Source of the DNA: a virus
Lineage: Duplodnaviria; Heunggongvirae; Uroviricota; Caudoviricetes
Reading direction: 5' to 3' (one strand)
Length of the DNA: 46,468 bases
IMG/VR virus record: IMGVR_UViG_2617270998_000006
Location: 1 to 46,468 of that record
The notes below the pieces were generated by a model. The model was not told the origin of the DNA, ran no database searches, and saw nothing but the letters and a program-made list of their open reading frames with translations. Numbering within the stretch: position 1 is the stretch's first letter; each line of letters opens with the position of its first letter. The position numbers and the translations under genes are program-made. Of the stretch, positions 1,956-44,541 are shown one piece after another.

Positions 1956-1966
1956 ATAAAATCCTT

Positions 1967-3396: not shown

Positions 3397-3405
3397 TGTA
3401 TTCCC

Positions 3406-6990: not shown

Positions 6991-7026
6991 AGGGGGAGGG
7001 GCTAACACCACCTCCCACCAGCGGGA

Positions 7027-7992
7027 TTATTCCCCAGCAGACATTTTCCCAATGATTTTTTTTATTGCTTCGTCAATTTCAGTTTGCACTTCAGACGGGA
7101 GTCTGGAGAACTCGTAGGCGACAACCCGTTTTTTCGGATCGGACTTCTTTCGAGCATATTGGCGACGGTCAGAGAAGTCTCGCAGCTTCTCAATCACCAC
7201 AGATTTAACCGGCGCGGGCTTCAGGCTTTTGCTTTCCGCTTTGAAGATAGCCAGTATCTTCGATTTATCCTCTTTCGCGCCCTCAGTCTCTGCAATTCGT
7301 TCGCGCACCGTATCAACCAGCTCTTCAATCGGCACGCTTTTAGCGTTAGCATCCTCGGCGATCTGGAGCAGTAACTGGTAATCTGGCAGGGCGAGATCGC
7401 TGGCAACAGGGAAGACAGCAATCATCTCATCCGGCACCGCGGCAGCCTGGAAAGCTCGCGTCACTTTAGCCTTTGAGATGTTCTCAGCTCGGGCGATCTC
7501 TTCTTTGGTCATATTCTTACCGTACATAACCTCGAAGCGTTTACCCAGCTCGCGCAGAGTGTGTTCGCGGGCTGTCTGGATATCAATGGCCAGCTGGCGT
7601 GCATCCGCCAGGCTGATCTCATCTTTCGTCACCAGAATCTCAAATTTCGTTTCATTGAAGATACACGCAGCGCGGCGACGTGATCCGTCCAATACCTCAA
7701 TGCGCTCCCCAACCATACGACCGATAGCCGGGAAGAACTGTTGCAATTTAATGGTGCGGGAAATATCGCTTACCGACTCAGGGGTGAGCAGAGACTGATC
7801 GCGGCCGTTAACTGCCGGGTCAACGAACGTGCGCGACTCAATCTCACCACTCAGCACAACGGTAAGCAAAAATTTAGCCTGGCGGCCAGATTTTAGGGTA
7901 AAGGTTTTGGTGCCTTCACTGCCTTCAAGCATGCGAGCAAACTCGGAGCTATTCTTGCCCAGCACTCGTCCACGGGAAACTATTTTTTTCAT
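7027..7992 (-). CDS. parB: partition protein ParB (centromere-binding)
   Basis: 321-aa ORF overlapping the parA stop by 4 nt; P1-type ParB by position and sequence character. Confidence 0.85.
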   Translation of the reverse strand: MKKIVSRGRVLGKNSSEFARMLEGSEGTKTFTLKSGRQAKFLLTVVLSGEIESRTFVDPAVNGRDQSLLTPESVSDISRTIKLQQFFPAIGRMVGERIEVLDGSRRRAACIFNETKFEILVTKDEISLADARQLAIDIQTAREHTLRELGKRFEVMYGKNMTKEEIARAENISKAKVTRAFQAAAVPDEMIAVFPVASDLALPDYQLLLQIAEDANAKSVPIEELVDTVRERIAETEGAKEDKSKILAIFKAESKSLKPAPVKSVVIEKLRDFSDRRQYARKKSDPKKRVVAYEFSRLPSEVQTEIDEAIKKIIGKMSAGE

Positions 7993-9200: not shown

Positions 9201-9310
9201 CTCCTTATCATTTCGTATGAGTGAATTGTACGTTTGATTCTGCTACGTGCAACTTTTTTTGATTCGTGCGTCAATTATTGCACGTAAAGAAATGGCGATG
9301 AGGCCATTAG

Positions 9311-9596
9311 ATGTGTGCTGGAGGGATGATGCAGGACCAGAATGTGCGATAGAGGGAAGTCGCATTGAATTATGTGCTGTGGAGGGATCGCTGGTATCAA
9401 ATATGTGTGCTGGAGGGAAAGATAGAAGATTAGATGTGCGCTGGAGGGAAACTTGGATGGTTAGATGTGTGCTGGAGGGAATGTCTTGGCAAACTGCGTG
9501 GCGCAACCCTCCAGCGCACACCAAAAACAGGAAAATGGGCAGGCATTCCCGGCAGCGCACATTTTTCAAATGCAGCTGCCCTCCAGCACACACTTA
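9311..9596. repeat. incA-type iteron array (RepA-binding copy-control locus)
   Basis: About eight or nine copies of the core TGTGTGCTGGAGGGA (some degenerate, the last two in inverted orientation) at roughly 30-bp spacing, between parA and the 3' end of repA. Confidence 0.8.
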
Positions 9597-10454
9597 TTCG
9601 GGAAGTTTCAGCTTTGGATTGCGAGAATGGACGATTACAAAACTTTCCCGGCCTTTCTTCTCAATTGAACAGTCGAGATAGCCGATTGTTTTAAGCTGTT
9701 CTATCGCTTTCTTAATGATACGGTTTTGCTCGCCAACAGCTGACTGCAAAGCCAGGCGCTCACGGATTCGCGCGAACGATAGCGGCAACGGGTTCTGCGG
9801 AAGGCTTTCGATGAAAGTGTAAATGGCTTGTGCAGCTTCTTTCTTCGGAAGGGCACGCAAGGCGTGGTGTTGCAACAGAACGCGATAATCAAGCTGGAAC
9901 AGCTCCCAGAGCTTCGAATCGGCCTCCAGCTCTATCAGATCAAGGTCAGCATCAAAACGCCCGACCTTCAGCAGACCAGTCTGATAGCCGCCTTTAGCAT
10001 CTTTTCCGCGCTTAAAAGCGATACCCTTGTTACGCAAGCGTCCAAGTGATTCATGAATGGTTAAACGCAGTTTCGCATCCAGACGTTTTGAGGGGAAACC
10101 ACAGGCTTTAGCGAACTCCTGAAACGATAACTGGATGGTGTTTGAAGAAAAGCCGTATTTGCTGAACGCGTAGATGACACCGATCCACGTTTTGAAATCA
10201 GTATCCATATCGAGTCGAGGACCAGTGATTTTAATATCATCGTAACCCTCGGCTTTAGCTATCTCCAGCTGGGAAAACGCTTTGGTGGCATCAATCTCTT
10301 TACTTTCTCCTTTGCTCTTTGATGGCTTCGGAACGAATACCCCCAAGCGCATCAACGCCACAGGCTGCACAGTGTTGTTTGAATTAACTGTTAGTTCTTT
10401 TGCCTTACTTTCAATGTCTGCGTAAAGAATATCGGAGATAAATGATTGATTCAT
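9594..10454 (-). CDS. repA: plasmid replication initiator RepA (P1-type)
   Basis: 286-aa ORF flanked by iteron arrays on both sides, the P1 R-replicon architecture. Confidence 0.9.
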   Translation of the reverse strand: MNQSFISDILYADIESKAKELTVNSNNTVQPVALMRLGVFVPKPSKSKGESKEIDATKAFSQLEIAKAEGYDDIKITGPRLDMDTDFKTWIGVIYAFSKYGFSSNTIQLSFQEFAKACGFPSKRLDAKLRLTIHESLGRLRNKGIAFKRGKDAKGGYQTGLLKVGRFDADLDLIELEADSKLWELFQLDYRVLLQHHALRALPKKEAAQAIYTFIESLPQNPLPLSFARIRERLALQSAVGEQNRIIKKAIEQLKTIGYLDCSIEKKGRESFVIVHSRNPKLKLPE

Positions 10455-10513
10455 ATTACTTTTTCCGAATTATGTGGATAGTTTTTATAAGTGATGATAA
10501 CTACCCAGGCTTT

Positions 10514-10614
10514 CCCGTCAGCACACATCCTATATCCCGCCAGCACACATTAGCAACCCGTCAGCACACATTTTTATCCCGCCAGCACACATCGTTTTCC
10601 CTCCAGCACACATC
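10514..10614. repeat. incC-type iterons (five RepA-binding repeats within the origin and repA promoter)
   Basis: Five copies of CCCGYCAGCACACAT at about 21-22 bp spacing directly upstream of repA. Confidence 0.8.
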
Positions 10615-10639
10615 GCGATACACTTCTAGGCCAGACGTG

Positions 10640-10735
10640 GCGCGGCCTGCAACGATCAGGGATCTATATGGATCTAATTGGGATCTGTATGGACCTAATT
10701 ATTGGATCTATCCAGTGGATAATGTGGATAAGTGA
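10640..10735. promoter_or_regulatory. oriR core: GATC cluster plus tandem DnaA boxes
   Basis: Five GATC sites within about 55 bp (10653-10708) followed by two TTATCCAC-like DnaA boxes (minus strand, 10716-10733); another DnaA-like box lies near 10471-10481. Confidence 0.7.
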
Positions 10736-10771
10736 AAAACCGGCCAACATAGCCGGTTGGAAGGAAGGGTA

Positions 10772-11164
10772 TTATTCTACGCTTTCGATAAGAAGACCAT
10801 GTTCATAACATTTAAGCTCATCGCCTTCGTACAGGAATTGGTATCCAATACCACCATTTTCATGGACATTAGGGAATAACTCATAACTCACTGAAGAGCA
10901 AATCACACCAATGCAGCGATCAACGCCTTCTCGTTCTTCAGTGCTGAAAAAATCCTCTTCGGTAAGGACATGAGTACATTGCTCATCAGCATAGGTCGGA
11001 AATACATGCTCGATGCAATCCGGGTGTTTTAAACCAAGCTGATCGGCAAGCTCGAAAGCACGACGGTATTGTTCAGATCCTGGCTTGCCAACAGTGATTT
11101 GCTCAATTTTGTAGATTAAAGTCGCTTTGTTGATAGTTTGCTTTACTGTTACTTTATCAGACAT
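10772..11164 (-). CDS. hypothetical protein (P1 upfA-like by position)
   Basis: 130-aa ORF immediately beyond oriR. Confidence 0.5.
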   Translation of the reverse strand: MSDKVTVKQTINKATLIYKIEQITVGKPGSEQYRRAFELADQLGLKHPDCIEHVFPTYADEQCTHVLTEEDFFSTEEREGVDRCIGVICSSVSYELFPNVHENGGIGYQFLYEGDELKCYEHGLLIESVE

Positions 11165-11175
11165 AAAAATCCCTT

Positions 11176-11508
11176 TTAGTTACCGCTAATAGCTCGGTTG
11201 TAATCATTAACGTTGCGATTCTTCCTATTAATCCCCATCAGCATCGTTTCTGTATCGAGGATATACGCTGGCAGATCATCAAAATATTCACTGCTAAACT
11301 CTGGCATCCTGCACATAAATGCACTTTTTGGGTCAGGGTGGTTAACCTTTGTCGGCGTCGGCGTTAAATTCGCTGATCGACTCCCGGAGCAACCGCTGAG
11401 TGTCAGCAGGAATACGCTGGCGAACATTACCCGCCGCAACCAGTTGTTTCTGAACTTCAGCTTTTCGTTCCATTTGCCTGTCAGCATATTTGGCTTGTTC
11501 TGATTCAT
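11176..11508 (-). CDS. putative lipoprotein (P1 mlp-like by position)
   Basis: Lipobox LLTLSGC after a hydrophobic stretch; the real start is probably the internal Met (MFASVFLL...). Confidence 0.5.
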   Translation of the reverse strand: MNQNKPNMLTGKWNEKLKFRNNWLRRVMFASVFLLTLSGCSGSRSANLTPTPTKVNHPDPKSAFMCRMPEFSSEYFDDLPAYILDTETMLMGINRKNRNVNDYNRAISGN

Positions 11509-11791
11509 TTTTCACTTCCTGGCTGTGAAAATGTTGCTCTGCTTTGTTCATCGTCTCAATGGTCTGGTTAAGATCCATTATTGACTTATCACGTTCCTTA
11601 ACAGCCTGATCAAGACTGCCAATTTTCTCCATGGCTTGCTTTAGCTGATGACGTTCCCACGCAAACCCAGCACCAACAAGTGCGCAAATCAGAACAAGAA
11701 CACCAGTAGCAGCAAGTTTCTCCTTCAAAGACAAAGCTGTTTTTAACGTAGAAAAGAATGACATGTCTTCCTCCTGAAGAAAAATTATCAA
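11342..11791 (-). CDS. putative exported or membrane-anchored coiled-coil protein (P1 ppfA-like by position)
   Basis: N-terminal hydrophobic segment then coiled-coil-like sequence; overlaps the lipoprotein ORF in another frame. The likely real start is the internal Met (MSFFSTLK...), so the 5' end is uncertain. Confidence 0.4.
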   Translation of the reverse strand: MIIFLQEEDMSFFSTLKTALSLKEKLAATGVLVLICALVGAGFAWERHQLKQAMEKIGSLDQAVKERDKSIMDLNQTIETMNKAEQHFHSQEVKNESEQAKYADRQMERKAEVQKQLVAAGNVRQRIPADTQRLLRESISEFNADADKG

Positions 11792-11803
11792 TGAAGTCCT
11801 TTG

Positions 11804-12592
11804 TTACCGTGCCGCTTTGTTTAATTCATCAAGAACAGAATCAGGAACCAAAGCGGCGACTGCGCTGGCTGTGCTGGCCTTATTTGCTGATGCTTCCGCA
11901 AGCGCGGTACCGATAGCATGGTTATAAGCAGTTATGGCTACGTTGGCGCTTTCATTCGCTCGTTCATACTGCTGTTGTAACGCAGTTGTGGGTGCTGTTG
12001 TCTGGTTGAAAACAACCCCAAACTGTTCAGTTGCTACTTTCAGAGATTCAATTTGCTCTTCTGTTAGTGCTGGTGGGGGAGTGGCAGTGCCGCCGCCTGA
12101 ACCAGAGCCTGACGAGCTTCCTGAGCCAGTGTTAAGGGTCTGGTTAATCTCCCCCATAGCAGCGACTAAACTTGATGTATTAAGCGCGTTTACAGCGTCC
12201 TCAAGCGATTTAGTAATAGTCACATCACCAATGGCAATAGAGATCGGCAGTTCTGAAACTTCTCGCTCATTAGCACGACAGTAAACATCCCAACCAATAT
12301 CGAGTTGAAGGAGCATTGACAGATCAGCATAACCAGCCAACAGGTCCGCGTGCTGAGTTGCCAGCCCTCCAATATTCGTTAAACCGGTTGCGGTTGTTCT
12401 GATCGTTGAAACATAGCTGGTAATAGTGTCGGGATAGACAATTGTATCCAGAATTAATCCGGTCAATTCTTCTGCAAGCAGTTTTGCTGTGTTAGCACTG
12501 TTTCGTGCCGATGTTATGGCACCAGGTGTTTTCATCCCACCGGCGGCGGCCAATTTTTTATATGCGGATAACTGGTAGTCTTTTTCCAGCAT
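11804..12592 (-). CDS. hypothetical protein with Gly/Ser-rich linker
   Basis: 262-aa ORF containing SGSSSGSGSGGGTATPPP low-complexity linker. Confidence 0.5.
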   Translation of the reverse strand: MLEKDYQLSAYKKLAAAGGMKTPGAITSARNSANTAKLLAEELTGLILDTIVYPDTITSYVSTIRTTATGLTNIGGLATQHADLLAGYADLSMLLQLDIGWDVYCRANEREVSELPISIAIGDVTITKSLEDAVNALNTSSLVAAMGEINQTLNTGSGSSSGSGSGGGTATPPPALTEEQIESLKVATEQFGVVFNQTTAPTTALQQQYERANESANVAITAYNHAIGTALAEASANKASTASAVAALVPDSVLDELNKAAR

Positions 12593-12885
12593 GATATCTC
12601 CTTACTTACCTGAACCAGGCCGTCTCCGGCTGCAACGGTAGAGCCGCATAAAACAGGATCACCAACGCATACGATCCCTTTCCCGTTGACGGTAAACCAT
12701 GCCCTGGTTGATATAGCTTGCCCGCCGTGCGTGCTGTTCCCATCGGTATGCTGTGCATATTGCTTACCATCAACTAACACTTCGACTCCGTTGACTTTAA
12801 GTAGTGGTTCGCTCTCTACGGGAGGCCTGGATGGGAATCCTCCGTGCCCCGAACAAATGCTGTCTTTTGTTGCAATACTTGCCAC
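12532..12885 (-). CDS. hypothetical Gly-rich small protein
   Basis: 117-aa ORF overlapping the upstream gene by about 60 nt; start uncertain. Confidence 0.35.
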   Translation of the reverse strand: MASIATKDSICSGHGGFPSRPPVESEPLLKVNGVEVLVDGKQYAQHTDGNSTHGGQAISTRAWFTVNGKGIVCVGDPVLCGSTVAAGDGLVQVSKEISCWKKTTSYPHIKNWPPPVG

Positions 12886-12966
12886 GTCATCACCAATGAT
12901 TTGCTCTGATTTTCGTTATTTTAACTTAGGTTATTTGTGGTCTGCATGGCGTTTACTTATTGCAAA

Positions 12967-12983
12967 ATTGCTCTAATAAATAT
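12967..12983 (+). promoter_or_regulatory. C1 repressor operator (ATTGCTCTAATAAAT-type)
   Basis: ATTGCTCTAATAAATAT matches the asymmetric 17-bp P1 C1 operator consensus; sits just upstream of the next plus-strand gene. Confidence 0.6.
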
Positions 12984-13054
12984 TGTTTTTTATGTCGTGT
13001 TTTCGGTACCATTCAGCCATCGCCCTTCAATGGGCATTTGTTTGGAGTCGTCAG

Positions 13055-13339
13055 ATGCAGATGGAGCTAATAAGCCGCAAGGAGTTCGATAGCCGTGTAA
13101 CCAGCGGTGAACTCGACAACTTGCAGGCTATCAAGGTGAAAGAAGGCTTTTGCCTCATTGGGAATCAGAGCGGAACAAATCACGTTTTTATGCTTCGCCG
13201 TACGGATTTGAAGCCATTTGTCTGGAAGAACGAAATTGGTCCCAGCTCATACGCTCAAACGAGGGGGTGCTACAACCTGGCCTTTTTCTACAAAGACGAG
13301 CTTTCTGTGGTTGATATTCAAGGGTTACAACATGTTTAA
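13055..13339 (+). CDS. hypothetical protein (P1 uhr-like by position)
   Basis: Start moved to internal ATG (MQMELISRK...) preceded by GGAG; immediately downstream of a C1 operator. Confidence 0.45.
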   Translation: MQMELISRKEFDSRVTSGELDNLQAIKVKEGFCLIGNQSGTNHVFMLRRTDLKPFVWKNEIGPSSYAQTRGCYNLAFFYKDELSVVDIQGLQHV

Positions 13340-13529
13340 GCACTGGAAAAACATTTCTATTTATAAAGTTTCTTGTGAGGCGGATCTGACCGACTTAGAA
13401 GATAAAAATAAAATGATCCTATTCACGCCATGCGGTAGCCAGGATATGGCCAAGTTCGGTTTTGTATCGCCATTTGGTGATAATTCCGAAGTGATCGCTA
13501 TGCATGGAAATGGCTTTATCCGGACATGA
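13332..13529 (+). CDS. hypothetical small protein (possible N-terminal part of a split nuclease)
   Basis: 65-aa ORF whose stop overlaps the next start in an ATGA arrangement. Confidence 0.3.
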   Translation: MFKHWKNISIYKVSCEADLTDLEDKNKMILFTPCGSQDMAKFGFVSPFGDNSEVIAMHGNGFIRT

Positions 13530-30599: not shown

Positions 30600-31241
30600 A
30601 TGGATAAGAAAATATGCGTTGTTTCGATGAGCGTCGGCAAACCGGCGTCAATGACTGCTGCATGGATCAATAACGAGCTGATAATGGCTGAGCGGACCAG
30701 CTACCCTGAACGCCGCCGCGACATGGAACTCCAGCTGCTGCGCGAATTGCGAGAAAAAGAGGAAAAGGGTTTTATCGTGCTGGTGGAAGAGGAAAACAGC
30801 TTTATTACTGGTCGAGTTGGCCAGCGTGTAAGGTTGCGCGATCCCTTCATGAACGGCAGGCCGGTACTAATTGAGGCAATGCAGATTTATAAGGAGCTGG
30901 AACGCCAGAAAGCAATCAAGTTACCGCGCAAGGAATCCGGCAAATACATCCTCCACCAAAGCATCTTCGATTCCGAACACGATAAAAAAGGCGATGAATT
31001 TTTCAACATCAATTGGAGCGAAATAACGACAGAGCATGTTCTGACGTTACTCTGTTGCTTTGCGACGGAATACAACAACGTTGCCAGCGCCGACTACATC
31101 AGGGCAATGGCTTGTGAAGTGGATAGTCGTGATGACTCATCGCTGATAGCGTCATATATAAACATCATCAAGAAAACTCAAATTATGGGATGCGCTAGAG
31201 TTCCTCAAGGAATACTCACCGGAAAGAATAATATTCTATAA
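30600..31241 (+). CDS. hypothetical protein (P1 mat-position gene)
   Basis: Start moved to internal ATG (MDKKICVV...); last plus-strand gene before the variable region. Confidence 0.4.
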   Translation: MDKKICVVSMSVGKPASMTAAWINNELIMAERTSYPERRRDMELQLLRELREKEEKGFIVLVEEENSFITGRVGQRVRLRDPFMNGRPVLIEAMQIYKELERQKAIKLPRKESGKYILHQSIFDSEHDKKGDEFFNINWSEITTEHVLTLLCCFATEYNNVASADYIRAMACEVDSRDDSSLIASYINIIKKTQIMGCARVPQGILTGKNNIL

Positions 31242-31338
31242 CCTACGAAGGTTATTTGTTACTTTCTGCGTAAACCTACAACTAACCTTCCTAAGTTAAG
31301 GAAGGTATTTATCATGAAGTGTAGACATAAGCGTATTA

Positions 31339-32379
31339 TTACATGGGCTTAACCACAACCTTTCCGTATATATCAAGTTTTGAATGTAATACGTTGACGT
31401 GAGACAATTCTTTATTCGAACTAACTTTATCTAAAATTATATTTTTATCTTTTTCAGTCATGTTATACCCTAAGGTAATTTGCTTGAATGCAGAAAAAGG
31501 AATTTTCTTTAAGTTAATTTCATGATAGTCATGAAAAACATCAGGATACTCATTTAATAGGCAGTCATCAATCGATGGAGAGACAATGCTTCCTATTTTT
31601 CTCTCGCAATCAGCCAATGGAAAAATAATTCTACTTTCATTTTCAGGAAGCCACTCTTCACCTTTTGTATAAAGAAGCCTATTAATAAAAAGCTCGCGAA
31701 CTGAATCTCGATTTAAGATCCCATGCAATGTATTATCTTTATTCTTTATATCTATATTCCTCGATGGCGCAGGATAGCCATTAAATCGCACAGCGCCTTT
31801 ATAATAGGTTACAGATGCTCTATCTTCTGGATTATAACTAACATCACACGGCCGATATATTTTGAAAAAATCGTGTGTTTCATCGAAAACTACAGCAAAC
31901 CCCTTTCCTATCGATGCATAATGAGTCCACATGTGTAGATTGCAATCACTTTTTGATAGAGAGAACACACCAAGATGACAGCTTACGGCTTCTACTAAAT
32001 AATCGTTAAGGTACGTTACTATTTCTTGGAGTTTAGATTCATCATATGAATCCATTGAGGTAAAACCTTCATTGATTAACAAGTGTGGAAAATCCTCTCC
32101 GTATCGTTTCCCGCAAGGTTTTAAATAATACTCTAACTCTTGTATAGATGGGACATAAGATGGATCTCGTTGCATTTTCTTAAATTCATTTCTAGCCCAT
32201 GCGTAATCGGCTGGTGAAAATTTATTAAAAAATGGAAGAAGTCGCGACTCACTCGACGGATCATTAAGATACTTTGGTTGCGTTGCTCTAAAGAAACCAT
32301 CCTCCAGACAAGATGTTCTAATGTGCATGCCCGGCCAAGGTTTATCCATATAACTCTCGCCTATATATTTAACTAACAC
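31339..32379 (-). CDS. DUF2971-like protein
   Basis: 346-aa ORF, visibly AT-rich; N-terminal FxxxxPxxxNDPxxE-like segment (FFRATQPKYLNDPSSE) and central VFSLS...HMWTHYASIGKGFAVVFD resembling the DUF2971 signature. Confidence 0.5.
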   Translation of the reverse strand: MLVKYIGESYMDKPWPGMHIRTSCLEDGFFRATQPKYLNDPSSESRLLPFFNKFSPADYAWARNEFKKMQRDPSYVPSIQELEYYLKPCGKRYGEDFPHLLINEGFTSMDSYDESKLQEIVTYLNDYLVEAVSCHLGVFSLSKSDCNLHMWTHYASIGKGFAVVFDETHDFFKIYRPCDVSYNPEDRASVTYYKGAVRFNGYPAPSRNIDIKNKDNTLHGILNRDSVRELFINRLLYTKGEEWLPENESRIIFPLADCERKIGSIVSPSIDDCLLNEYPDVFHDYHEINLKKIPFSAFKQITLGYNMTEKDKNIILDKVSSNKELSHVNVLHSKLDIYGKVVVKPM

Positions 32380-32431
32380 TGTATGTCGATCCTGTTGTTT
32401 AAGCCCATATCATATGGGCTTTAAATGATTA

Positions 32432-32680
32432 TTAATCAGCATTCAGAAGCAATGCGTTATCTATGATGATCTGCTCCCATTCTTCGAATGCCCGATCGCG
32501 GACACCTTGGGGAACACTGTTAGTTTTGAAATCGACGACCGTCCGCCATTTCCCGTCCGGGCGGTACATGCGCAGAGCTTTACTTCCCCCTTCCCTGCGC
32601 ACCTCAACGTTATGCTTGTCAGCAAACTCTTGTAATGCTCGTAGCGTCCCATGCTTTACTGTGTAGTATCGCTTTTTCAA
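32432..32680 (-). CDS. hypothetical small protein, weak HicA/YcfA-like resemblance
   Basis: 82-aa ORF; segment LQEFADKHNVEVRREGGSKALRMYRPDGKWRTVVDF resembles HicA but lacks the GSHH histidines. Confidence 0.3.
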   Translation of the reverse strand: MKKRYYTVKHGTLRALQEFADKHNVEVRREGGSKALRMYRPDGKWRTVVDFKTNSVPQGVRDRAFEEWEQIIIDNALLLNAD

Positions 32681-32778
32681 GTTTTCTCTCCAGCCTGTGC
32701 CAAGGCTTCAACTTCCAAATCGTAAGACTCAAACTCATAGTCCTGGTCGTCAACTTCTTCAGGCACTGGCAGTAAATG

Positions 32779-33117
32779 CTAGGCTGAGTATATCTGACCA
32801 TTATCAAAACGCTCCTGGCTGTAGAGCGTCGCGGCTATGAGTGTTAGCGCCGGGCGGTCATAACGGTAAATTTTGCGAACGTCACGGTCAACGAGACGAC
32901 CGAAATTACCATAACCGCGCTCCAGTAATAATTTTTTAATTTCCGGCCAGTATGGGCCATAGCTGCGGTACAGACGGGGATTTTTCAGTAATCGCCCGCG
33001 TAGCCCTGACAGGAAGAAATCAACGTATTCGTCTTCTGTCTTTCCTAACAACGCTGTACGGAGTACCGCTTCAAGATATGTTTTATTCGGTTTTATTGTA
33101 TCAGATAGTGTGGCCAT
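32779..33117 (-). CDS. hypothetical protein
   Basis: 112-aa ORF co-oriented with neighbours; no motif recognised. Confidence 0.4.
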   Translation of the reverse strand: MATLSDTIKPNKTYLEAVLRTALLGKTEDEYVDFFLSGLRGRLLKNPRLYRSYGPYWPEIKKLLLERGYGNFGRLVDRDVRKIYRYDRPALTLIAATLYSQERFDNGQIYSA

Positions 33118-33150
33118 ATTATGCGACGCCCGGCGAACCGGGCGCTCCTG

Positions 33151-34518
33151 TTATGCGTATTGTTGGATGACGGCCAGAACGTCCGCCACGTTGTGTTTTG
33201 TCTCGATAATCCACCAGTTACCCGGGAAATCGCTGTTCTTTGCCTTCGCTGGCAGCCAGCGAGCGCCGAATTTCGCCTTGATTGCGTCTTTCGCACGGAA
33301 AAGAATGCCTTTCATGCCGGACGCCTCCTGAAGCCCAAATACCTCGCCAGCGGCGAATTTTGGTGCGTACATCATCTTCAGGTCGGCGGTGGATACGCGA
33401 TAATTCAGACCAAGAGACTGAGCTATGCTGGTGGCATCACCCTGTATTGATGATAACTCTTCTTGTTTCTCGTTTCTGGCGGCAATTTCTTCCTCCGTGA
33501 TGTTGCCAAGGGCCAGGTTTATCCGATCAGCGTCGGCCTGTTTCTCTTCATCGGTGCGCCCGGCAAGAACCGTGTTAATTCTCTGCAATATCTCCACATG
33601 ATTCTTGCGCATGCTGAGCAATTCCGGCGTAACATCGTTAAGAGCCACCAGCCCAAGGATGGCAAGGTCGGAAAACATTGATACCAGGTTGTAGGTCATG
33701 CGATAGCTGAGTTGGCCATAGGCTGATGGCAACTGCACCGCATCCATTTGATAGGCATCCATAAATTTAGAGCCGTCGTTTACGACATCCGCAATTGCCG
33801 GTGTGATTTTCCCTGTGGTGGCGGCCTCCCTGATTGCTGTTACCCACGATTGAGTCAGCGCGGCGACTGCATGATTCAGATTGGCTTTCCGTTCTGCTGC
33901 AATGCGCGCGCTTGCTGCGTCCATTGCCTGCTTGATCTCGTCTTTATTGCTGTAAATGCCAATGGGACCAAACTGTGTTGTGGTGATCTCATAATCTGAC
34001 GCCCGGAACTCATTGGTACCGAAAATGGCATTGGTGACCTCAAGTTCAGAATCCCCGTTACGAGTAGCCCCCTGACTTGTTTTCTCCGGCATTTTTGCGA
34101 TCGCATCCGCTATTTTCTCCTGAATTGCTTCAGGGGATAGCGTATCTCCGTATGACGCGATTACATCGCTATAATTGGATCCAAACAGTTCAGTCAGGAA
34201 TACTTCTGCCAAACGGACCTGGCGGTTATTCCCTTCCGACATCATACCAAGCACCCATTTAGCAATTGACGACTTCAGCGCGCCGTCACGGCGATCCGGG
34301 TAAACCGCATGCTTCAGTGGGTCCGTATAGGTACCAACAAAATCAATGCTATAGCCTGACTCTGTAGTCTGAACGCCGTATGAGTCAGTGATTTTGATCA
34401 TGCCGCGCTGCTGGAAACGGTAGAAATCGTCACAGGAAATGATGTCGTTAATCCCGGCGATGGAGACGCCACCACTGATTTTCTGCATAACAGCATCTTC
34501 ATCGGGAGTTACATCCAC
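33151..34518 (-). CDS. hypothetical protein (455 aa), downstream partner of an overlapping two-gene operon
   Basis: Start overlaps the upstream gene stop by 10 nt; no catalytic or nucleotide-binding motif recognised. Confidence 0.5.
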   Translation of the reverse strand: MDVTPDEDAVMQKISGGVSIAGINDIISCDDFYRFQQRGMIKITDSYGVQTTESGYSIDFVGTYTDPLKHAVYPDRRDGALKSSIAKWVLGMMSEGNNRQVRLAEVFLTELFGSNYSDVIASYGDTLSPEAIQEKIADAIAKMPEKTSQGATRNGDSELEVTNAIFGTNEFRASDYEITTTQFGPIGIYSNKDEIKQAMDAASARIAAERKANLNHAVAALTQSWVTAIREAATTGKITPAIADVVNDGSKFMDAYQMDAVQLPSAYGQLSYRMTYNLVSMFSDLAILGLVALNDVTPELLSMRKNHVEILQRINTVLAGRTDEEKQADADRINLALGNITEEEIAARNEKQEELSSIQGDATSIAQSLGLNYRVSTADLKMMYAPKFAAGEVFGLQEASGMKGILFRAKDAIKAKFGARWLPAKAKNSDFPGNWWIIETKHNVADVLAVIQQYA

Positions 34519-35300
34519 CTGTTATCCAGCGTCTTCACATCCCAGTTACCCGATTTGGTGCCTTTGAAGGTAAAGATGATCTCCACGTCTGCGCGCTGGC
34601 TGTCGAAGTCCAGCGACTTAATGCGAACGATATCACCGGCACAATCGTAGTATTGGCCTACACGCCATGAGCGATCGCCGATAACAAGGAACTCACTCGC
34701 ATGGTTAACCAGGTCAGGATCAACATCCAGAATGCCTTTATTTATTGCATCCTCCACCAGCGGGCGCAGGCGTTTGATATCCGTCGCGGCCTTCTGAGTA
34801 CGGTTCAATAATTTCTCATAGCGGGAGATGGCTTGAGAGATATTAGCCTTGCGCTGAATGGCGCTTTTCAACGACGCGCGATACTGTGCTAACAACATAC
34901 GGTCTGTGTGATGGACACTCCCCCAGCGGGCCTTCCAGTCTGCGTTATCAGCTGCTTTGGCCATTACCGCCTGTTTGAATTTAGCTACCTCGGCGGTGGT
35001 CTTTTCAAATTCCGCTTTGCTTCGCTCTAATTCAGCGGTAAGTACCTCCACATCCTCACCAGCTGCGTGCTGCGCCTTGATGTAGTTCTGAAGGTCGATA
35101 GTAGCCTGTTCTTTCTGGCGAGCGCGTTGCGCGGCTTTCGCCTTATCCATTTGAACCTGCATCATTGCCAGACGTTCACCGTCATCCTTCGCGGTATACA
35201 TCTGCATTTCGATCATATCATTGGCGTCGGCGTTCTCCATTTCTGACTTATCTGAACGGAGGATATCGGAGATCCTGGGCTTCGTTTGGGAAACGTACAA
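34509..35300 (-). CDS. hypothetical coiled-coil protein (about 263 aa)
   Basis: N-terminal half Lys/Ala/Glu-rich and coiled-coil-like; start uncertain (ORF track uses a TTG that lies inside a 16-bp palindrome; first ATG is 20 codons in). Confidence 0.45.
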   Translation of the reverse strand: MYVSQTKPRISDILRSDKSEMENADANDMIEMQMYTAKDDGERLAMMQVQMDKAKAAQRARQKEQATIDLQNYIKAQHAAGEDVEVLTAELERSKAEFEKTTAEVAKFKQAVMAKAADNADWKARWGSVHHTDRMLLAQYRASLKSAIQRKANISQAISRYEKLLNRTQKAATDIKRLRPLVEDAINKGILDVDPDLVNHASEFLVIGDRSWRVGQYYDCAGDIVRIKSLDFDSQRADVEIIFTFKGTKSGNWDVKTLDNRWM

Positions 35301-35309
35301 TATTGTACG
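35294..35309. promoter_or_regulatory. perfect 16-bp palindrome CGTACAATATTGTACG (candidate operator)
   Basis: Overlaps the 5' end of the coiled-coil gene; the half-site ACGTACAATA recurs at 35478-35487. Confidence 0.3.
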
Positions 35310-35478
35310 GTTGCGCTATTGCGGTAGGGTGTACTCCAACGCTATACGGTCTTTGGCAGACCTTTAGGGAAATGAGATAAGCTAAATGCGATAAGAGAAA
35401 AGCAATAACTTAAAGGCAATAGCTGATTACGATAAATCAATCAGTTACTTATCAGTATCGATTAAAAAATGCTCCTAA

Positions 35479-35925
35479 CGTACAATAATTTCCGTTTCCC
35501 AAACCGCCCCCTCCGATCCCGCGCCGGTCTACCCGCAGACGCATCTGAGTTTTCTGGCAAACGTCTATAACCAGAAGGCGCGTGAGTTCTACCATTGTTA
35601 TGGCGTACAGTTGATCGACGCGGCGTATGAAGCGCATCAAGAAAAGGGCGATGTGCCTGTGATGATCACCAAGCATTGCCTGCGTTTTGCCTTTAATCTT
35701 TGCCCGAAACAGGCGAAAGGTAACATCAAAAGCTGGAAAGCGACGCCAATGCAACTGGTCAACGGTGATGAGGTACTGACGCTGAAATTTGGCTGTCGCC
35801 CGTGTGAAATGCACGTTATCGGCAAGATTAAAGATCACATTCTTAAAATGCCGCTGCCGGGCAGCGTGGTGGGTTCCGTCAGTCCGGAAGATCCGATGAA
35901 AACGCTGCCGAAGCGTAAACCTTAA
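35479..35925 (+). pseudogene. 3' fragment of a chromosomal-type gene (possibly U32-family peptidase-like), 5' end missing
   Basis: Open frame starts abruptly after an in-frame TAA with no plausible start or SD for the first 40 codons; GC-rich, unlike the flanking AT-rich DNA; family guess from the C-terminal sequence only. Confidence 0.4.
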
Positions 35926-36029
35926 TCCTTTGCGACATCAGCCCGGTGGCGTTTACCGGGCCTTTGTGTTGGTATTTATTTCCGCCGGTTAACGCCTGGC
36001 CCAAAGCCGACATCCGGCGAGGTGTCCGC

Positions 36030-36158
36030 TTAATGCGCTTTAAACCCCGCCGCAGTCATGAGCAGGCGAAAAAACATGCCCACCGCCGCCAGCGCCAACA
36101 CGCTGCCGCCCCAAAGGATGACCAGCCACATCAGGCGTTTCCAGAGAGAATGTTGCAT
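36030..36158 (-). CDS. small membrane protein (42 aa), putative oxidase accessory subunit
   Basis: MQHSLWKRLMWLVILWGGSVLALAAVGMFFRLLMTAAGFKAH; ATG overlaps the subunit II stop, as for CydX/AppX-type peptides. Confidence 0.4.
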   Translation of the reverse strand: MQHSLWKRLMWLVILWGGSVLALAAVGMFFRLLMTAAGFKAH

Positions 36159-37168
36159 CAGTGATACCCCTCGCCATGTTGCACTTTGCCGCGAAACACA
36201 TAGTAACTCCAGAAGGTGTACACCAAAATCACCGGAATGATGAGCAGCGCACCGACCAGCATAAACCCCTGACTCTGGGCGGGGGCGGCTGCCTGCCAGA
36301 GGGTAACCGAAGGCGGAATAATGTGCGGCCAGATACTGATGCCCAGGCCGCTGAAACCAAGGAAGATTAGCCCGAGCGTCAGCACAAACGGAAACGTGTG
36401 GTTTTCCGGACGACCCAGTGTGCGCCATAACCAGACGCTGAACGCGATCACCAGCACCGGAACCGGCAGCAGATAGCCCAGGTTGGGAAGCGTAAACCAA
36501 CGGTCGGCGATCGCCGGATGCGCTAACGGTGTCCAGAGGCTGATTATCGCAATTGACAACAGCAGGGCCAGCAGCAGTTTTTTCGCGACGCTGCGCATTT
36601 TATCCTGAAGCGGATTTTCGCTTTTCATCACCAGCCAGGTTGCGCCTAAGAGCGCATAGGCAACGACCAGTCCGACGCCACAGAACAGAGTGAAGGGGGT
36701 TAACCAGTCGAACGGCCCGCCGCTGTAGCTGCGACCGGTCACCGGGAAACCGTTGATCACTGCGCCAACCACGATCCCTTGGGCGAAGGTAGCCAGAATC
36801 GACCCGCCGAGAAAAGCATGGTCCCAAAATGGGCGGTGGGCTGGCGTGGCCTTGAAGCGAAACTCGAAGGCCACGCCGCGAAAAATCAGTCCGATCAGCA
36901 TCAGCGTCAACGGAATGGTCAGCGCATCGATAATAACCGCATAGGCCATCGGGAAAGCCCCAAACAGCCCCGCGCCGCCCAGCACCAGCCAGGTTTCATT
37001 ACCGTCCCACACCGGCGCGACGCTATTGACCATCACATCACGATCCTCTGCGTTTCGTGTGACAGGAAACAGAATGCCAATACCCAAATCGAATCCATCC
37101 ATCACGATATACATTAGCGTGGCGAAAACGATGATCACAAACCAGATAACCGATAAATCAATACCCAT
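36158..37168 (-). CDS. cytochrome bd-type quinol oxidase subunit II (CydB/CioB-like)
   Basis: 336-aa polytopic membrane protein with CydB-like N-terminus (VMDGFDLGIG); start overlaps the subunit I stop. Confidence 0.85.
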   Translation of the reverse strand: MGIDLSVIWFVIIVFATLMYIVMDGFDLGIGILFPVTRNAEDRDVMVNSVAPVWDGNETWLVLGGAGLFGAFPMAYAVIIDALTIPLTLMLIGLIFRGVAFEFRFKATPAHRPFWDHAFLGGSILATFAQGIVVGAVINGFPVTGRSYSGGPFDWLTPFTLFCGVGLVVAYALLGATWLVMKSENPLQDKMRSVAKKLLLALLLSIAIISLWTPLAHPAIADRWFTLPNLGYLLPVPVLVIAFSVWLWRTLGRPENHTFPFVLTLGLIFLGFSGLGISIWPHIIPPSVTLWQAAAPAQSQGFMLVGALLIIPVILVYTFWSYYVFRGKVQHGEGYH

Positions 37169-38568
37169 TAGCGATGTGCCTTATGTTGAGAATCGAGGAC
37201 GGCGGCGGAAAGCGGCCTGGCGGGTGTGCCCGGCGGCGGCGCGGAATCATCTTCCAGCGGGCCTTTGCGGATCAGGCGAATCATATAGCTGTAGCCGACG
37301 CCAAAGACTGAGCTGTAGACAACAAAGAAAGCGAGCAACGAAATGCTCATATGTAAATCGCCGTGGGCCGACACCGCGTCGGCAGTACGCTGTAAACCGT
37401 ACACCACCCACGGCTGGCGTCCGACCTCAGTGGTCACCCAGCCCGCGAGAATGGCGATGAGCCCCGAGGGTCCCATCCATAGCGCAAAGCGCAGGAACGG
37501 GCGCGAGGTGTAGAGGCGCTGCCTGTAGCGCAGCCAGAGCGCACAGAGCCCTAGCAGGATCATTAACATGCCCAGGCCGGCCATGATGCGAAACGACCAG
37601 AACACGATCGTCGAGTGAGGGCGATCCTCTTTGGCGAATTCTTTTAGCGCCGGAACCTGTTTATCCAGACTGTGCGTCAGGATCAGGCTTCCCAGCGCCG
37701 GGATCGCCAGTCCATAGCGGGTGCGTTCCTGTTCCATATCCGGCCAGCCAAACAGCAGCAGCGGCGTGGGCTCACCCGGCGGGTTTTCCCAGTGACCTTC
37801 AATCGCGGCGATTTTGGCTGGCTGATGTTTCAGGGTGTTCAGCCCATGCATATCGCCGATTAACGCCTGCACCGGCGCGACAATAAGCGTCATCCACAAC
37901 GCCATGGAAAACATCGTGCGAATGGCTGGCGTTGCGTTGCCGCGCAGCAGATGCCAGGCTGCCGAAGCGCCGACAAACAGCGCGCTACTGAGAAATGCGG
38001 CGACGGACATATGCAGCAGCCGATAAGGGAACGAAGGATTGAAGATAACGGCGAACCAGTCCACGGGCACAACCTGGCCGTTGACGATCTCAAACCCCTG
38101 CGGCGTTTGCATCCAACTGTTAGACGCCAGGATCCAGAAGGTGGAAATGAGGGTGCCAAGCGCCACCATGCAGGTTGAGAAGAAATGCAAACCCGGACCG
38201 ACTTTATTCCAGCCAAACAGCATCACCCCGAGGAATCCGGCTTCAAGGAAGAAAGCGGTCAGCACCTCATAGGTAAGCAACGGCCCGGTAATACTGCCTG
38301 CGAATTCCGAAAAACCGCTCCAGTTGGTGCCGAACTGATAGGCCATCACCAGACCGGAAACCACGCCCATGCCGAAATTTACGGCGAATATTTTTGACCA
38401 GAAGTGGTACAACGAGCGCCAGACCGGATTTTTGCTTTTTAGCCAAAGGCCTTCCAGCACCGCCAGATAACTGGCAAGCCCAATGGTGATCGCCGGAAAG
38501 ATAATGTGAAATGAAACTGTAAAGGCGAACTGGATCCTTGCCAGGTGATACGCATCAAGACCAAACAT
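37168..38568 (-). CDS. cytochrome bd-type quinol oxidase subunit I (short Q-loop, CioA-like)
   Basis: 466-aa membrane protein with CydA-like N-terminus (RIQFAFTVSFHIIFP); about 50 residues shorter than E. coli CydA/AppC, suggesting the short Q-loop subtype. Confidence 0.85.
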   Translation of the reverse strand: MFGLDAYHLARIQFAFTVSFHIIFPAITIGLASYLAVLEGLWLKSKNPVWRSLYHFWSKIFAVNFGMGVVSGLVMAYQFGTNWSGFSEFAGSITGPLLTYEVLTAFFLEAGFLGVMLFGWNKVGPGLHFFSTCMVALGTLISTFWILASNSWMQTPQGFEIVNGQVVPVDWFAVIFNPSFPYRLLHMSVAAFLSSALFVGASAAWHLLRGNATPAIRTMFSMALWMTLIVAPVQALIGDMHGLNTLKHQPAKIAAIEGHWENPPGEPTPLLLFGWPDMEQERTRYGLAIPALGSLILTHSLDKQVPALKEFAKEDRPHSTIVFWSFRIMAGLGMLMILLGLCALWLRYRQRLYTSRPFLRFALWMGPSGLIAILAGWVTTEVGRQPWVVYGLQRTADAVSAHGDLHMSISLLAFFVVYSSVFGVGYSYMIRLIRKGPLEDDSAPPPGTPARPLSAAVLDSQHKAHR

Positions 38569-39150: not shown

Positions 39151-39648
39151 ACAAACACAGCACTGTACCCCCCCTCATAACTGAAAAGCGCCGCCGCCCC
39201 CGCCCGAAGGGCGGGAACAACATCGCTTTTAATTATGAATGTTGTAAGTACATTGTCATCGCTGTCAGTCTTCTGGCTGGAAGTCCTCAGTACACGCTCG
39301 TAAGCGGCCCTCACGGCCCGCTAACGCGGAGATACGCCCCAACTTCGGGTAAACCCTCGTCGGGACCACTCCGACCGCGCACAAAGGCTCTGTCATGGCT
39401 GAAAACGGGTATGGCTTAGCAGGGCCGGGGGTGGGTAAGGTGAAATCTATCAGTCAGTACCGGCTTACGCCGGGCTTCGGCGGTTTTACTCCGGTATCAT
39501 ATGAAACAACAGAGTGCCGCCTTCCATGCCGCTGGCGCGGCATCAGGACAACTGAAGAGTGACGGCGCACATTAACATCAAACAGACTTGTTAAGCAGTC
39601 TTTCAGGGTGTAATCTGAAGACCTGTTAAATAGTCTCAGAGGTGTGTT

Positions 39649-39900
39649 ATGCCCAGTATCATTTTGTCTGACACCAGTGCAAGCGTCAGTGAGCTGAAAA
39701 AAAATCCGATGGCAACTGTCAGTGCCGGAGAGGGGTATCCTGTTGCCATTCTTAACCGGAATCAGCCAGCATTCTACTGTGTCCCTGCTGAGCTCTATGA
39801 AAGAATGCTTGATGCCTTGGATGACCAAGAGCTGGTAAAACTGGTTACTGAACGCAGCAGTCAGCCTCTGCATGATGTGGACCTGGACAGTTATTTATGA
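39649..39900 (+). CDS. RelB/StbD-family antitoxin (Phd/YefM fold)
   Basis: 83-aa ORF (MPSIILSDTSASVSELKKNPMATV...) resembling the plasmid StbD/RelB antitoxin; stop overlaps the toxin start. Confidence 0.75.
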   Translation: MPSIILSDTSASVSELKKNPMATVSAGEGYPVAILNRNQPAFYCVPAELYERMLDALDDQELVKLVTERSSQPLHDVDLDSYL

Positions 39901-40184
39901 CTTATACAGTAAAATTCCGGGATGATGCACTGAAAGAATGGCTCAGACTGGACAAGACCATTCAGCAGCAGTTCGCAAAAAAACTGAAAAAATGCAGTGA
40001 AAATCCTCATATAGCTTCTGCAAAACTACGTGGATTAAAGGACTGCTATAAAATCAAACTTCGCGCATCAGGTTTTCGTCTGGTTTATCAGGTTATTGAT
40101 GATATGTTAATTATTGCGGTCGTCGCAGTAGGTAAACGTGAACGCAGCAACGTTTATCATCTCGCCAGTGAACGGATGAAATAA
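39897..40184 (+). CDS. RelE/StbE-family toxin (ParE/RelE superfamily)
   Basis: 95-aa ORF (MTYTVKFRDDALKEWLRLDKTIQQQFAKKL ... FRLVYQVIDDMLIIAVVAVGKR) with typical RelE-family organisation. Confidence 0.75.
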   Translation: MTYTVKFRDDALKEWLRLDKTIQQQFAKKLKKCSENPHIASAKLRGLKDCYKIKLRASGFRLVYQVIDDMLIIAVVAVGKRERSNVYHLASERMK

Positions 40185-41043
40185 TATCCTGGTCAGCACT
40201 CTTTCTTACCTGCTTCCATTTTTTCAGTGATTCTTTTCCTGCATGCAGAAAAAAAGCCTACCCTGTGGGCAGGCATAACAGACAATCGCACAGTCAGTGT
40301 TGAAATTAATGATGTCACGCATTATACCCGGTGGATACACAAACCATCCCTGCAAATGCACTGGCATCCTAATCAACGTCTGAAACAACTGCAATGGCCG
40401 GACCTGTGATTTCAGAGAAAGTTATTATGTTTATTGAATATAACCGAAGTGATAAATAAAAGTATTATCACCTTTAATATTTATGCTTATTGCGTGGTTT
40501 TATCTGGTTATATAAAGCACAGATGTTCTTATTATTTTCTGAAAAATAACCATATGGATCGATTTCCCCCACCCAGCCGAAGCGGTTCGGCTCGTTCGGC
40601 GTGTCGTCGACACTGAAGCGCTTATCCACTTCGTTCCAGCGGTAAGAGTTGTCGCTGTCGCTGACGAATGCCATCGGGTCGCTAAACAGCGTGATCCGCC
40701 ATGCGATCAAAAAGCGTAAGTGTTTCCGACAGACGAGCCGGTGAAAAAAGTGGTGTGTCTGGCAATACAGGCATCGTCCCCGAAATGGACGATGCCGTTG
40801 AAGGACTGGGGTATGGCAATAAGCCGCTTTATTATCGGATTCAGTGACCGCCTGGACGGTTACTTTTGAGAAAAGGCATTTACACACAATCCTAAACAGA
40901 CTCCTATATTTCAGATTTTGTTATCAACGCATTTCAAATCTCTTAGAAATCATTACTGTCGTCATATTTTCCGAGGCAGCTCACCACCTAACCATGTCTT
41001 ATCAACAATATTTTGTGAAGGATATTTATAATGTAAAGACACA

Positions 41044-44000
41044 TCAGAAACGATATTCCACACTCAACATGGCAGATGTATTATGGTATCCATGTTCTCC
41101 AAGTTGAATGCCTGCATCAGCCCGGAATGCTACTTCTGGTGTTATCATTCCCACAACACCACCATTTATTTCTCCGATATCACGCGCACCATCCTGGTAT
41201 ATACTTACACCATTCATACTGGTGCCGAAAACACGACTATTGTGCAACCAGTGTGCCTCCACAAATGGTCTGAACGGAACCGCATACCGCGTATTTTTAC
41301 CGTTTTTGCTGGTAAGCCATGTTCTTGCTCCCAGGCGGGTGAGAATATTTCCGTTACCGGTATTTTCAATACTGGTTCCGTTACTTTCATGATATTTGTC
41401 TGATTTTACATTCATCCGGACAACCTGAAGCTGCGGCTGAACATACCATTCATGACTTCCCTTGTAATTGTCGGTAAACTCTCCAGCCTTCCATGAATAT
41501 CCTGCTTCCAGAGATACCGTAAACCCTTTTGACTTCCATGACTCAGCAGGCAGCCGTTCTCCATTTATATGATTATCAAACCAGCTGTATTGCAGCCAGC
41601 TATCAAGATAAGAACCATTGTGTGTTTCATCATTGGCATACCATGTTGCATAAAGACCCGCTGTGTATCCATTCATTCTTCCTTCCGAATGGTATCCGGT
41701 GCTCAGGGCATTCGTACTGTTATTATTATGACCATAGCCAGCCATCATACCTGTATGCCAGCGATCGGTACCATTCAGGCTCCACTGAGCTATATCTCCC
41801 CCTATTAACACAACGTAGCTATTCCCCCGGGTTCTCAGCTGACTACTGTTGTCACGCCAGCGATTATGTTTTCCTTTATTATACATCCAGATACCTGCTT
41901 CATTTTCTTCTCCTGTCATGTGGCTGATATACAACTCCTGTCCCTGTCGTTCATACAGATTCGTTACAAACAGATTATTTGCAGCAGCAATACTGGCAAC
42001 ATAGCTACCTGCCTCAGGACGCAAATTATTATCATGGCTTTCCGGTACAGCTTCAGGTTGTGGTACAGGAATGTCTTTTCTGCTAATCAGATACCAGTTA
42101 GTGCTGTTAATCCCCTGACCACGTTTCAGTATGTAATCATAAGCTCCGGCTGTAATACGTTCCGTCTGAATGAATTCAGCATTATCAGCATTGCCACTGA
42201 CGTGAATCACTTCAATCCCATTAAGTGTCTCTGCACCAGTACCACCGGCCTGAGTAACAGCGACACGGGTACGGCCACTGGCATTACCTTTAATCACCAG
42301 ACGATCTGTTTTCGAATTGTCACCACCTGTTTCTGTCTGGAGGAGAATAAGTCCATTTCTGCCAGTGTAATTCCCTCCGACAGTCAGTATATTACCCGGC
42401 ATATATGTAGTGAGATCGACTATACCACTATTGCTCAGATTTCCTGCAACGCCCCCAAACCCGGAGAGTTTGCCCTGCTCTTCAACAATGACCTGGTTAC
42501 TGCCGAGCATCACCGGTGAATCTGCGTTCCCCAGTATCACTGTCCCCTGAATAATATCTGTCATCCCGGTCCATTTTGCGTTATCGCTAATGTTCAGTGC
42601 ACCTGCTCCCGTCTTGCGAACATTACCATAACCACTGATATTGTTGGTAAGCTGCCATGCTGATGTACTGTTCAGAGTTAATGTGCCATAGTTATCAACA
42701 AAGGCTGTCCCCAGATTATCAGCCGTGGATACAGCCAAATGAGCCCCCTTATTCACGGTAAAAACACCGGAAAAATTACGATTATTACCCGTTATATCAA
42801 GCATTCCCCCATTTATGTTCAGAGAACCATCCCCTGCAATAGTACCTGCAGATTCTCCTCCATTATTCAGTATCAGACTTCCGCCATGAATGTTCAGCAC
42901 AGAGCCTGCAGCCGTCAGTAGTTTGCTTATTGTCTGAGGATACCCATTCATATCCAGTTCTGCGCCACGGGATAAATATAAATACTCAGTCCGACCAAGA
43001 GCATCAGGTGCAGCAAGAATTAATACGCCAGATTTAACCTCTGTATTTCCTGTATAATTGTTTGTTGCAGAAAGTATAAGAGTACCATTACCTGATTTTG
43101 TCAGACTTTTGCCGTCCCAGCCATCATATAATAAAGGTGAAAGATTATCGGAAAGAGAAACGCCTATGTTCAGAGTGGCATCTTTTTCTATATTAAAGGT
43201 TCCATATCCCATCCCTTTTGTATTATTCCATCTCAGCATGGATATCAGTTTGTTATCGTCGTCATTTAAAGACGTATAAACATAACTTTCAGCACCTTCT
43301 GTCAGTAATACATTGTATTGTACAATGTGACTATTATCAGCGATCGAGATACCTGTGTCTGACGACAATAATGTGTAATAGTCCTGAGTCCAGTTCTTAA
43401 TTGATGTGTCTATATTAAGCCATGAATCACTTTTTAATGTAATAGTATTTGCGTGAACATTAGCATTTCCTACAGACAGGTTCATAGATGCGTCTTCATC
43501 AATACTTATATTTCCGTTAAAAATGGAGTTCTTGCCTGACAGATAAACAGATGAGCCATTCCCAATCATTAGCCCACCATTAATTGCTGTTGCGTTATTG
43601 ATGTTTTTAATAATTAATTCATTTGTACCATTAACAGGTATACTAGCTAGTTTAATATCACCATTAATCACAGAATCTGAATAAATATCTAATGAATTAT
43701 ACCCGCCAGAAAAAATTATTGATGTATTATAAGCATCTTTTTGGCTATTATATAATCCTGAAAGATTACCATGATTATTAATATGGATATCTTCTCCATA
43801 AACAGAGCAACCACCGTCGGGGCCATATCCCCCCTGAACAATACCGTTATTATTCAAAGTGATTTGATTTCCAGAAATAGCATCTCCCCCTTGTTTTATT
43901 CCATATCCTCCAGATATTATGTTGTCGTTAGTAATGAAAAGATTACTACCATTAATACCATCACCACCGTTTACGCCATTACCGCCCAATATTCCTCCGG

Positions 44001-44541
44001 AATTATGCACTGTAATATTGCTACCGGTTACACCGGAACCACCTGTCCCACCTACATCATCACCTCCGTATATACTTCTGTAATTATCAACTATAATATC
44101 ATCCCCGCTTAACCCTGCACCTCCGCTACTTCCTGAGCCACCAAGACCATTACCCCCATATACATTTCTGTAATTGTTTATAGATATTTTGTTGCCACTA
44201 ACAGCAATTCCACCATTATATCCATCTCCTCCCCAAACACTACCATTATTATTTAGCGTAAAGTTTTCACCGTAGACACCTGCACCACCGATTGATGTAT
44301 TGCTTGTTCCTCCTTTGATGTTAATACTGCTTTCAACAGATAGTATATTTTGAGTATAACTTGTTTTATACGGCACGCTGATATTAAGCGCCGCGTTTCC
44401 ATCAACACCTGTAATACTCCTGGTTATACTTTCAGGTATACCATTACCATTCAGTTGTATTGTTTGCGCACCAGAAAAATGAGACTGCACAGAATAAAGT
44501 ATACTGACCAGAAATTGTAAAATTCGTATATTCTTATTCAT
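41044..44541 (-). CDS. autotransporter (type Va secretion) adhesin-like protein
   Basis: 1165 aa: signal-peptide-like N-terminus, Gly-rich passenger repeats (GGxGxxG, NNYR..GG), C-terminal barrel-like region ending in an aromatic residue (...SVEYRF); visibly AT-rich. Confidence 0.75.
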   Translation of the reverse strand: MNKNIRILQFLVSILYSVQSHFSGAQTIQLNGNGIPESITRSITGVDGNAALNISVPYKTSYTQNILSVESSINIKGGTSNTSIGGAGVYGENFTLNNNGSVWGGDGYNGGIAVSGNKISINNYRNVYGGNGLGGSGSSGGAGLSGDDIIVDNYRSIYGGDDVGGTGGSGVTGSNITVHNSGGILGGNGVNGGDGINGSNLFITNDNIISGGYGIKQGGDAISGNQITLNNNGIVQGGYGPDGGCSVYGEDIHINNHGNLSGLYNSQKDAYNTSIIFSGGYNSLDIYSDSVINGDIKLASIPVNGTNELIIKNINNATAINGGLMIGNGSSVYLSGKNSIFNGNISIDEDASMNLSVGNANVHANTITLKSDSWLNIDTSIKNWTQDYYTLLSSDTGISIADNSHIVQYNVLLTEGAESYVYTSLNDDDNKLISMLRWNNTKGMGYGTFNIEKDATLNIGVSLSDNLSPLLYDGWDGKSLTKSGNGTLILSATNNYTGNTEVKSGVLILAAPDALGRTEYLYLSRGAELDMNGYPQTISKLLTAAGSVLNIHGGSLILNNGGESAGTIAGDGSLNINGGMLDITGNNRNFSGVFTVNKGAHLAVSTADNLGTAFVDNYGTLTLNSTSAWQLTNNISGYGNVRKTGAGALNISDNAKWTGMTDIIQGTVILGNADSPVMLGSNQVIVEEQGKLSGFGGVAGNLSNSGIVDLTTYMPGNILTVGGNYTGRNGLILLQTETGGDNSKTDRLVIKGNASGRTRVAVTQAGGTGAETLNGIEVIHVSGNADNAEFIQTERITAGAYDYILKRGQGINSTNWYLISRKDIPVPQPEAVPESHDNNLRPEAGSYVASIAAANNLFVTNLYERQGQELYISHMTGEENEAGIWMYNKGKHNRWRDNSSQLRTRGNSYVVLIGGDIAQWSLNGTDRWHTGMMAGYGHNNNSTNALSTGYHSEGRMNGYTAGLYATWYANDETHNGSYLDSWLQYSWFDNHINGERLPAESWKSKGFTVSLEAGYSWKAGEFTDNYKGSHEWYVQPQLQVVRMNVKSDKYHESNGTSIENTGNGNILTRLGARTWLTSKNGKNTRYAVPFRPFVEAHWLHNSRVFGTSMNGVSIYQDGARDIGEINGGVVGMITPEVAFRADAGIQLGEHGYHNTSAMLSVEYRF

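Follow-up and report, generated by a model that had tools for sequence, protein, structure and literature searches.

Whether two overlapping open reading frames (ORFs) encode a translationally coupled protein pair, or are what is left of phage genes, is the question raised by positions 33151-35300 of the window, i.e. the whole stretch of 46,468 nucleotides of Caudoviricetes DNA analysed here (IMG/VR record IMGVR_UViG_2617270998_000006). The ORF scan recovers the arrangement exactly as reported in the preliminary description of this DNA, that is two ORFs sharing 10 nt (34509-34518):

34509-35300, minus strand, ORF1, 263 aa, first possible start TTG
33151-34518, minus strand, ORF2, 455 aa, first possible start GTG

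From this overlap, translational coupling and a complex between a coiled-coil protein and its 455-aa partner had been deduced, either as a novel two-component effector or as remnants of phage morphogenesis genes stranded by a junction at about 35.4 kb. As far as the individual products are concerned, the earlier reading stands. In a single-sequence AlphaFold model of ORF1 (mean pLDDT of 61.5), long helices are predicted at residues 10-187, followed by a C-terminal part of low confidence with a few strands, which fits the coiled-coil-rich product with a beta-rich C-terminal part that had been described; what such a model confirms is a predicted helical character only. Neither ORF gave a match above threshold in the Pfam scan, including against profiles of scaffold, portal, protease and capsid families, and the PADLOC scan returned a marginal JetC/MukB-like coiled-coil match only for ORF1 (E = 0.009) and no match for ORF2, in agreement with the lack of recognisable catalytic signature already remarked for the downstream product. 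A novel effector or defence pair encoded by a coupled operon thus has in its favour two long ORFs, their 10-nt overlap and the lack of Pfam or PADLOC assignment for both.

Comparison with phage P1 gives a different answer. In BLASTP against P1 DarB (defence against restriction B; YP_006479.1, 2255 aa), ORF1 residues 10-259 align with DarB residues 1549-1798 at 99% identity and ORF2 residues 1-455 with DarB residues 1801-2255 at 97% identity, the two matches being colinear and separated by only two residues, at the site of a frameshift. The two parts lie in the window as follows:

34524-35273, minus strand, darB remnant part 1, codons for DarB 1549-1798 (248/250 identical; PGAP pseudogene)
33151-34518, minus strand, darB remnant part 2, codons for DarB 1801-2255 and the native darB stop (442/455 identical)

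At the DNA level, in the phage collection, positions 33000-35275 are 98.1% identical to the 3' end of P1 darB and to ulx, with an abrupt end at 35275. When the region 31000-36000 was searched by megablast against complete E. coli genomes, about 1,000 plasmids were matched, and in those identical to the window RefSeq/PGAP treats 33151-35273 as one pseudogene, labelled 'helicase; frameshifted; incomplete; missing N-terminus'. In tblastn, the 455-aa segment was matched in 19 of 50,697 phage records, at a single place in each and under darB wherever the gene is named, a distribution that led to the rejection of the ORF2 segment as a stand-alone gene in other phages and that also speaks against a coupled operon.

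What lies at 33151-35300 is almost certainly the 3' remnant of P1 darB, no longer functional, in a P1-like phage-plasmid that is itself degraded. The coding signal of ORF1 and ORF2 is real and inherited from darB, yet these are not two genes, and their lack of any Pfam or PADLOC family is due to the C-terminal third of DarB being uncharacterised rather than to novelty. The locus is already known, being annotated in RefSeq as a truncated and frameshifted pseudogene, and there is no new two-protein system. Besides the full colinearity over DarB residues 1549-2255, the likeness to P1 extends to the P1-like backbone and to the genes that follow downstream, ulx and lxc. The homology to P1 head proteins, which the preliminary description had foreseen as making the locus ordinary phage core, is clear, with 97-99% amino acid identity to DarB. 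The genes of P1 head morphogenesis, namely prt (portal), pro (protease) and gene 23 (capsid), are neighbours of darB on its upstream side in P1, and DarB is, like their products, a head component (PMC9024508); these genes have nonetheless no homology to ORF1 or ORF2, and the prt/pro side of darB is not adjacent in the window, where a foreign block stands between. The earlier idea of phage-gene remnants stranded by the junction was right in that the gene of a P1 virion head protein ends at a breakpoint at 35275, and mistaken in its scaffold with a partner, a single gene, darB, being found instead. Strictly speaking, darB is not a morphogenesis gene either, DarB being an anti-restriction methyltransferase-helicase that is packaged in the head.

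Regarding the overlap itself, the DNA alignment with P1 contains one indel only, a single 1-nt gap in 2124 alignment columns, which is also seen in the alignment with the related plasmid pEcoUTI1e. It accounts for two features:

34522-34523, minus strand, frameshift site, AA where P1 has AAA, one A missing
34509-34521, minus strand, out-of-frame tail of ORF1 (..N R W M) and TAA stop, both made by the frameshift as judged from the alignment

Where P1 reads CTG GAT AAA CAG GTG GAT GTA ACT (L D K Q V D V T), the window carries CTG GAT AAC AGG TGG ATG TAA, the shifted frame meeting after four codons the TAA that serves as the ORF1 stop. The GTG 'start' of ORF2 corresponds to an internal darB codon, that of Val1801, which is GTT in pEcoUTI1e, and the TTG of ORF1 belongs to the unrelated DNA of the junction; neither is a genuine start codon, which undermines a coupled operon further. 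In other words, the 10-nt overlap exists because one base is missing in comparison with P1 and with 633 of the 650 related E. coli records, and what had been taken as a sign of translational coupling and of a complex proves, from alignments and allele counts, to be a frameshift scar inside one ancestral gene.

These counts come from a 76-nt probe placed across the frameshift, which matched 650 E. coli records. The deletion allele was present in 17 of them (100% match), all annotated as 'helicase' pseudogene, and missing from the remaining 633, for which the span is 77 nt instead of 76 among the matches listed and for which the RefSeq names, i.e. N-6 DNA methylase, helicase-related protein or DEAD/DEAH box helicase, designate darB. 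Every complete P1-like phage record that was aligned is likewise without the deletion. The 17 records that do carry the split allele represent plasmids that are nearly identical, and the split arrangement is not conserved among relatives, which again disfavours an operon. The missing A could be rejected as a sequencing error, the same allele being present in 17 independently assembled complete records. As for substitutions private to the window, the remnant carries 8 synonymous and 6 non-synonymous ones, which are too few to show relaxed selection.

The other end of the remnant is set by a rearrangement, around which three features can be distinguished:

35275-35276 (uncertain by about 2 nt), no strand, rearrangement breakpoint, darB nucleotide ~4643 joined to foreign DNA
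35274-35300, minus strand, fortuitous 5' extension of ORF1, TTG + 9 codons (MYVSQTKPR), non-P1 DNA
35276-35514, no strand, 239-bp non-coding element, edge of the foreign block

DarB identity begins at ORF1 residue 10 in BLASTP and P1 DNA identity at about 35275, the very position where the match of intact P1-like plasmids and phages to the window ends. The junction was found in 19 E. coli records, including the plasmids pEcoUTI1e, pEH10-18-47_3 and p2017.03.02CC_2. Beyond 35275 extends a mosaic of foreign DNA, made of the 239-bp element, a peptidase fragment, a cytochrome bd operon, a GntR fragment and further cargo. The 239-bp element is 88-95% identical to a sequence located beside IncFII repA2 in many F-type plasmids, and pEcoUTI1e harbours two perfect copies of it that flank the cytochrome bd block as inverted repeats (2662-2900 and 6317-6555 of the pEcoUTI1e locus). 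The truncated darB of pEcoUTI1e (NZ_CP049847.1) has the breakpoint, the 239-bp element and the cytochrome bd block in common with the window, but this block is inverted between the two and, in pEcoUTI1e, is bordered on its other side by a surviving darB 5' end of about 1 kb; besides, the pEcoUTI1e remnant is one open 708-codon frame followed by an intact ulx, unlike the situation in the window.

The cargo itself deserves a brief description. The cytochrome bd-type oxidase genes (36030-38568, minus strand) encode a short subunit I (466 aa), a subunit II of 336 aa and a small DUF2474 protein. Their GC content, about 58%, exceeds that of the P1 backbone (about 47%), and on either side they are bordered by fragments of a U32 'collagenase-like' peptidase gene and of a GntR regulator gene. 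Further on, within 39600-44541, a Phd/YefM-RelE toxin-antitoxin pair is accompanied by an alkaline phosphatase fragment and by an autotransporter of 1165 aa (41044-44541, minus strand), after which come IS91/IS3 fragments.

Downstream of the remnant, the P1 gene order darB-ulx-lxc is kept on the P1-like backbone, with ulx in a degraded state:

32677-33117, minus strand, ulx pseudogene (DarB packaging helper), W113 changed to a stop (TGG to TAG)
32432-32680, minus strand, lxc, 82 aa, intact according to the P1 annotation and the ORF list

From the comparison of the window with P1 ulx translations, what remains of ulx is a 112-aa ORF (32779-33117), and PGAP reports an 'internal stop' in ulx of an identical plasmid. 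The place taken in P1 by the EcoP1 type III mod/res genes, between lxc and mat, is occupied here by a gene for a 346-aa DUF2971 protein (31339-32379, minus strand) matching the PADLOC phage-defence candidate PDC-S31 (E = 3e-16), which may be a defence gene swapped in at a known variable site of P1.

The records at hand form a nested series, with truncation only and an intact ulx in pEcoUTI1e, truncation and frameshift with an intact ulx in pEH10-18-47_3, and truncation, frameshift and ulx nonsense codon in p2017.03.02CC_2 as in the window; this nesting therefore gives the order of events as truncation, then frameshift, then ulx stop. As these comparisons show, a rearrangement introducing a foreign block (peptidase fragment, cytochrome bd genes and more) removed darB codons 1 to ~1548 along with the promoter; the loss of one A from an AAA run then split the remaining 707 codons into the 263-aa and 455-aa ORFs, and the adjacent ulx finally gained its nonsense codon.

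What the truncation took away can be appreciated from the biology of the intact protein. DarB is a head-internal protein of about 250 kDa that is injected with the DNA, its first 30 residues being necessary and sufficient for capsid targeting, and Ulx helps its localisation (PMC9024508). Together with Ulx and DdrB, it protects against EcoB/EcoK type I restriction (PMC12810830), and it is the archetype of the methyltransferase-SF2 helicase dyad in 'polyvalent' virion proteins (PMC5512222). In P1 DarB, the Pfam domains are N6_Mtase/Eco57I (145-290), SNF2/ResIII (833-911) and Helicase_C (1455-1517), so all recognised domains are N-terminal of residue 1548 and missing from the window, and with them the N6-adenine methyltransferase and SNF2/SF2 helicase of the dyad (PMC5512222). 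The capsid-targeting N-terminus is missing as well, P1 homology starting in the window at DarB residue 1549 only, and so is the PdarB promoter of P1. Moreover, the uninterrupted darB frame is broken by the 1-nt deletion at 34522-34523, so that residues 1 to ~1548, PdarB and an unbroken frame, all three present in P1, are all lacking in the remnant. Going by the sequence, a fragment starting at residue 1549 could not be packaged and has no recognisable catalytic domain left.

The promoter and terminator scan of 32300-36200 found no sigma-70-like promoter upstream of the remnant, with fewer sites than in shuffled controls, and inspection by eye showed no Shine-Dalgarno-like sequence ahead of the TTG, the GTG or the first internal ATGs. 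Upstream of the remnant, on the same strand, is the cytochrome bd operon, and the hairpin that follows this operon is without a U-tract on that strand. Neither ORF would be expected to be made in useful amounts or to be functional, and the element would presumably be devoid of DarB-type protection of its own DNA against EcoK/EcoB-type (type I) restriction; this loss of function is deduced because the capsid-targeting N-terminus and the only recognisable catalytic domains are in the missing part.

The arrangement of the strands nevertheless lends itself to a reading in which the remnant has been co-opted, read-through from the cyd operon yielding one or both C-terminal DarB fragments that would act, for example, as a decoy for Dar partners (Ulx, DdrB) or for DNA and thereby hinder the anti-restriction of superinfecting P1-like phages. 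The remnant does share the strand of this operon, with no strong terminator evident on that strand, and at least 19 plasmids, which come from various hosts and countries, still have the truncated allele. However, identity among these plasmids is 99.9-100% over the region, and persistence therefore reflects recent common descent rather than selection; the truncation was followed by the break in the frame and then by the stop in ulx, a pattern of neutral decay; in phages, the 455-aa segment was matched in no more than 19 of the 50,697 records, always under darB where that gene is named; and such fragments would have neither a recognisable ribosome-binding site nor the capsid-targeting signal (PMC9024508), which together make co-option highly improbable. 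As for a coupled operon encoding a novel effector or defence pair, it retains virtually no credibility once ORF1 and ORF2 are recognised, at 97-99% identity, as adjoining parts of a single protein of 2255 aa, and their overlap as the outcome of a 1-nt deletion missing in 633/650 records and in every complete P1-like phage examined.

The P1-like backbone comprises 1404-13521, corresponding to the P1 par/rep region, and 13516-35275, corresponding to P1 from the pmgL/pmgM region to mat, lxc, ulx and the darB 3' end. At about 13.5 kb (13516-13521), hrdC is joined directly to the pmgL/pmgM region, a join that, on the standard gene order of P1, skips about 12 kb with dmt, ban and baseplate/tail genes, and that probably makes the element a defective prophage surviving as a plasmid.

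While the outcome is a negative result, in that it removes a candidate 'novel two-component system', it carries a lesson of method, namely that short ORF overlaps beside rearrangement junctions should be checked for a frameshift before translational coupling is inferred. Beyond this, it documents how a lineage of P1-like phage-plasmids carrying resistance and cargo DNA loses phage functions in a stepwise manner, through darB truncation, frameshift and then ulx inactivation; with a block of tail/baseplate genes also missing, the element illustrates phage-plasmids turning into plain plasmids.
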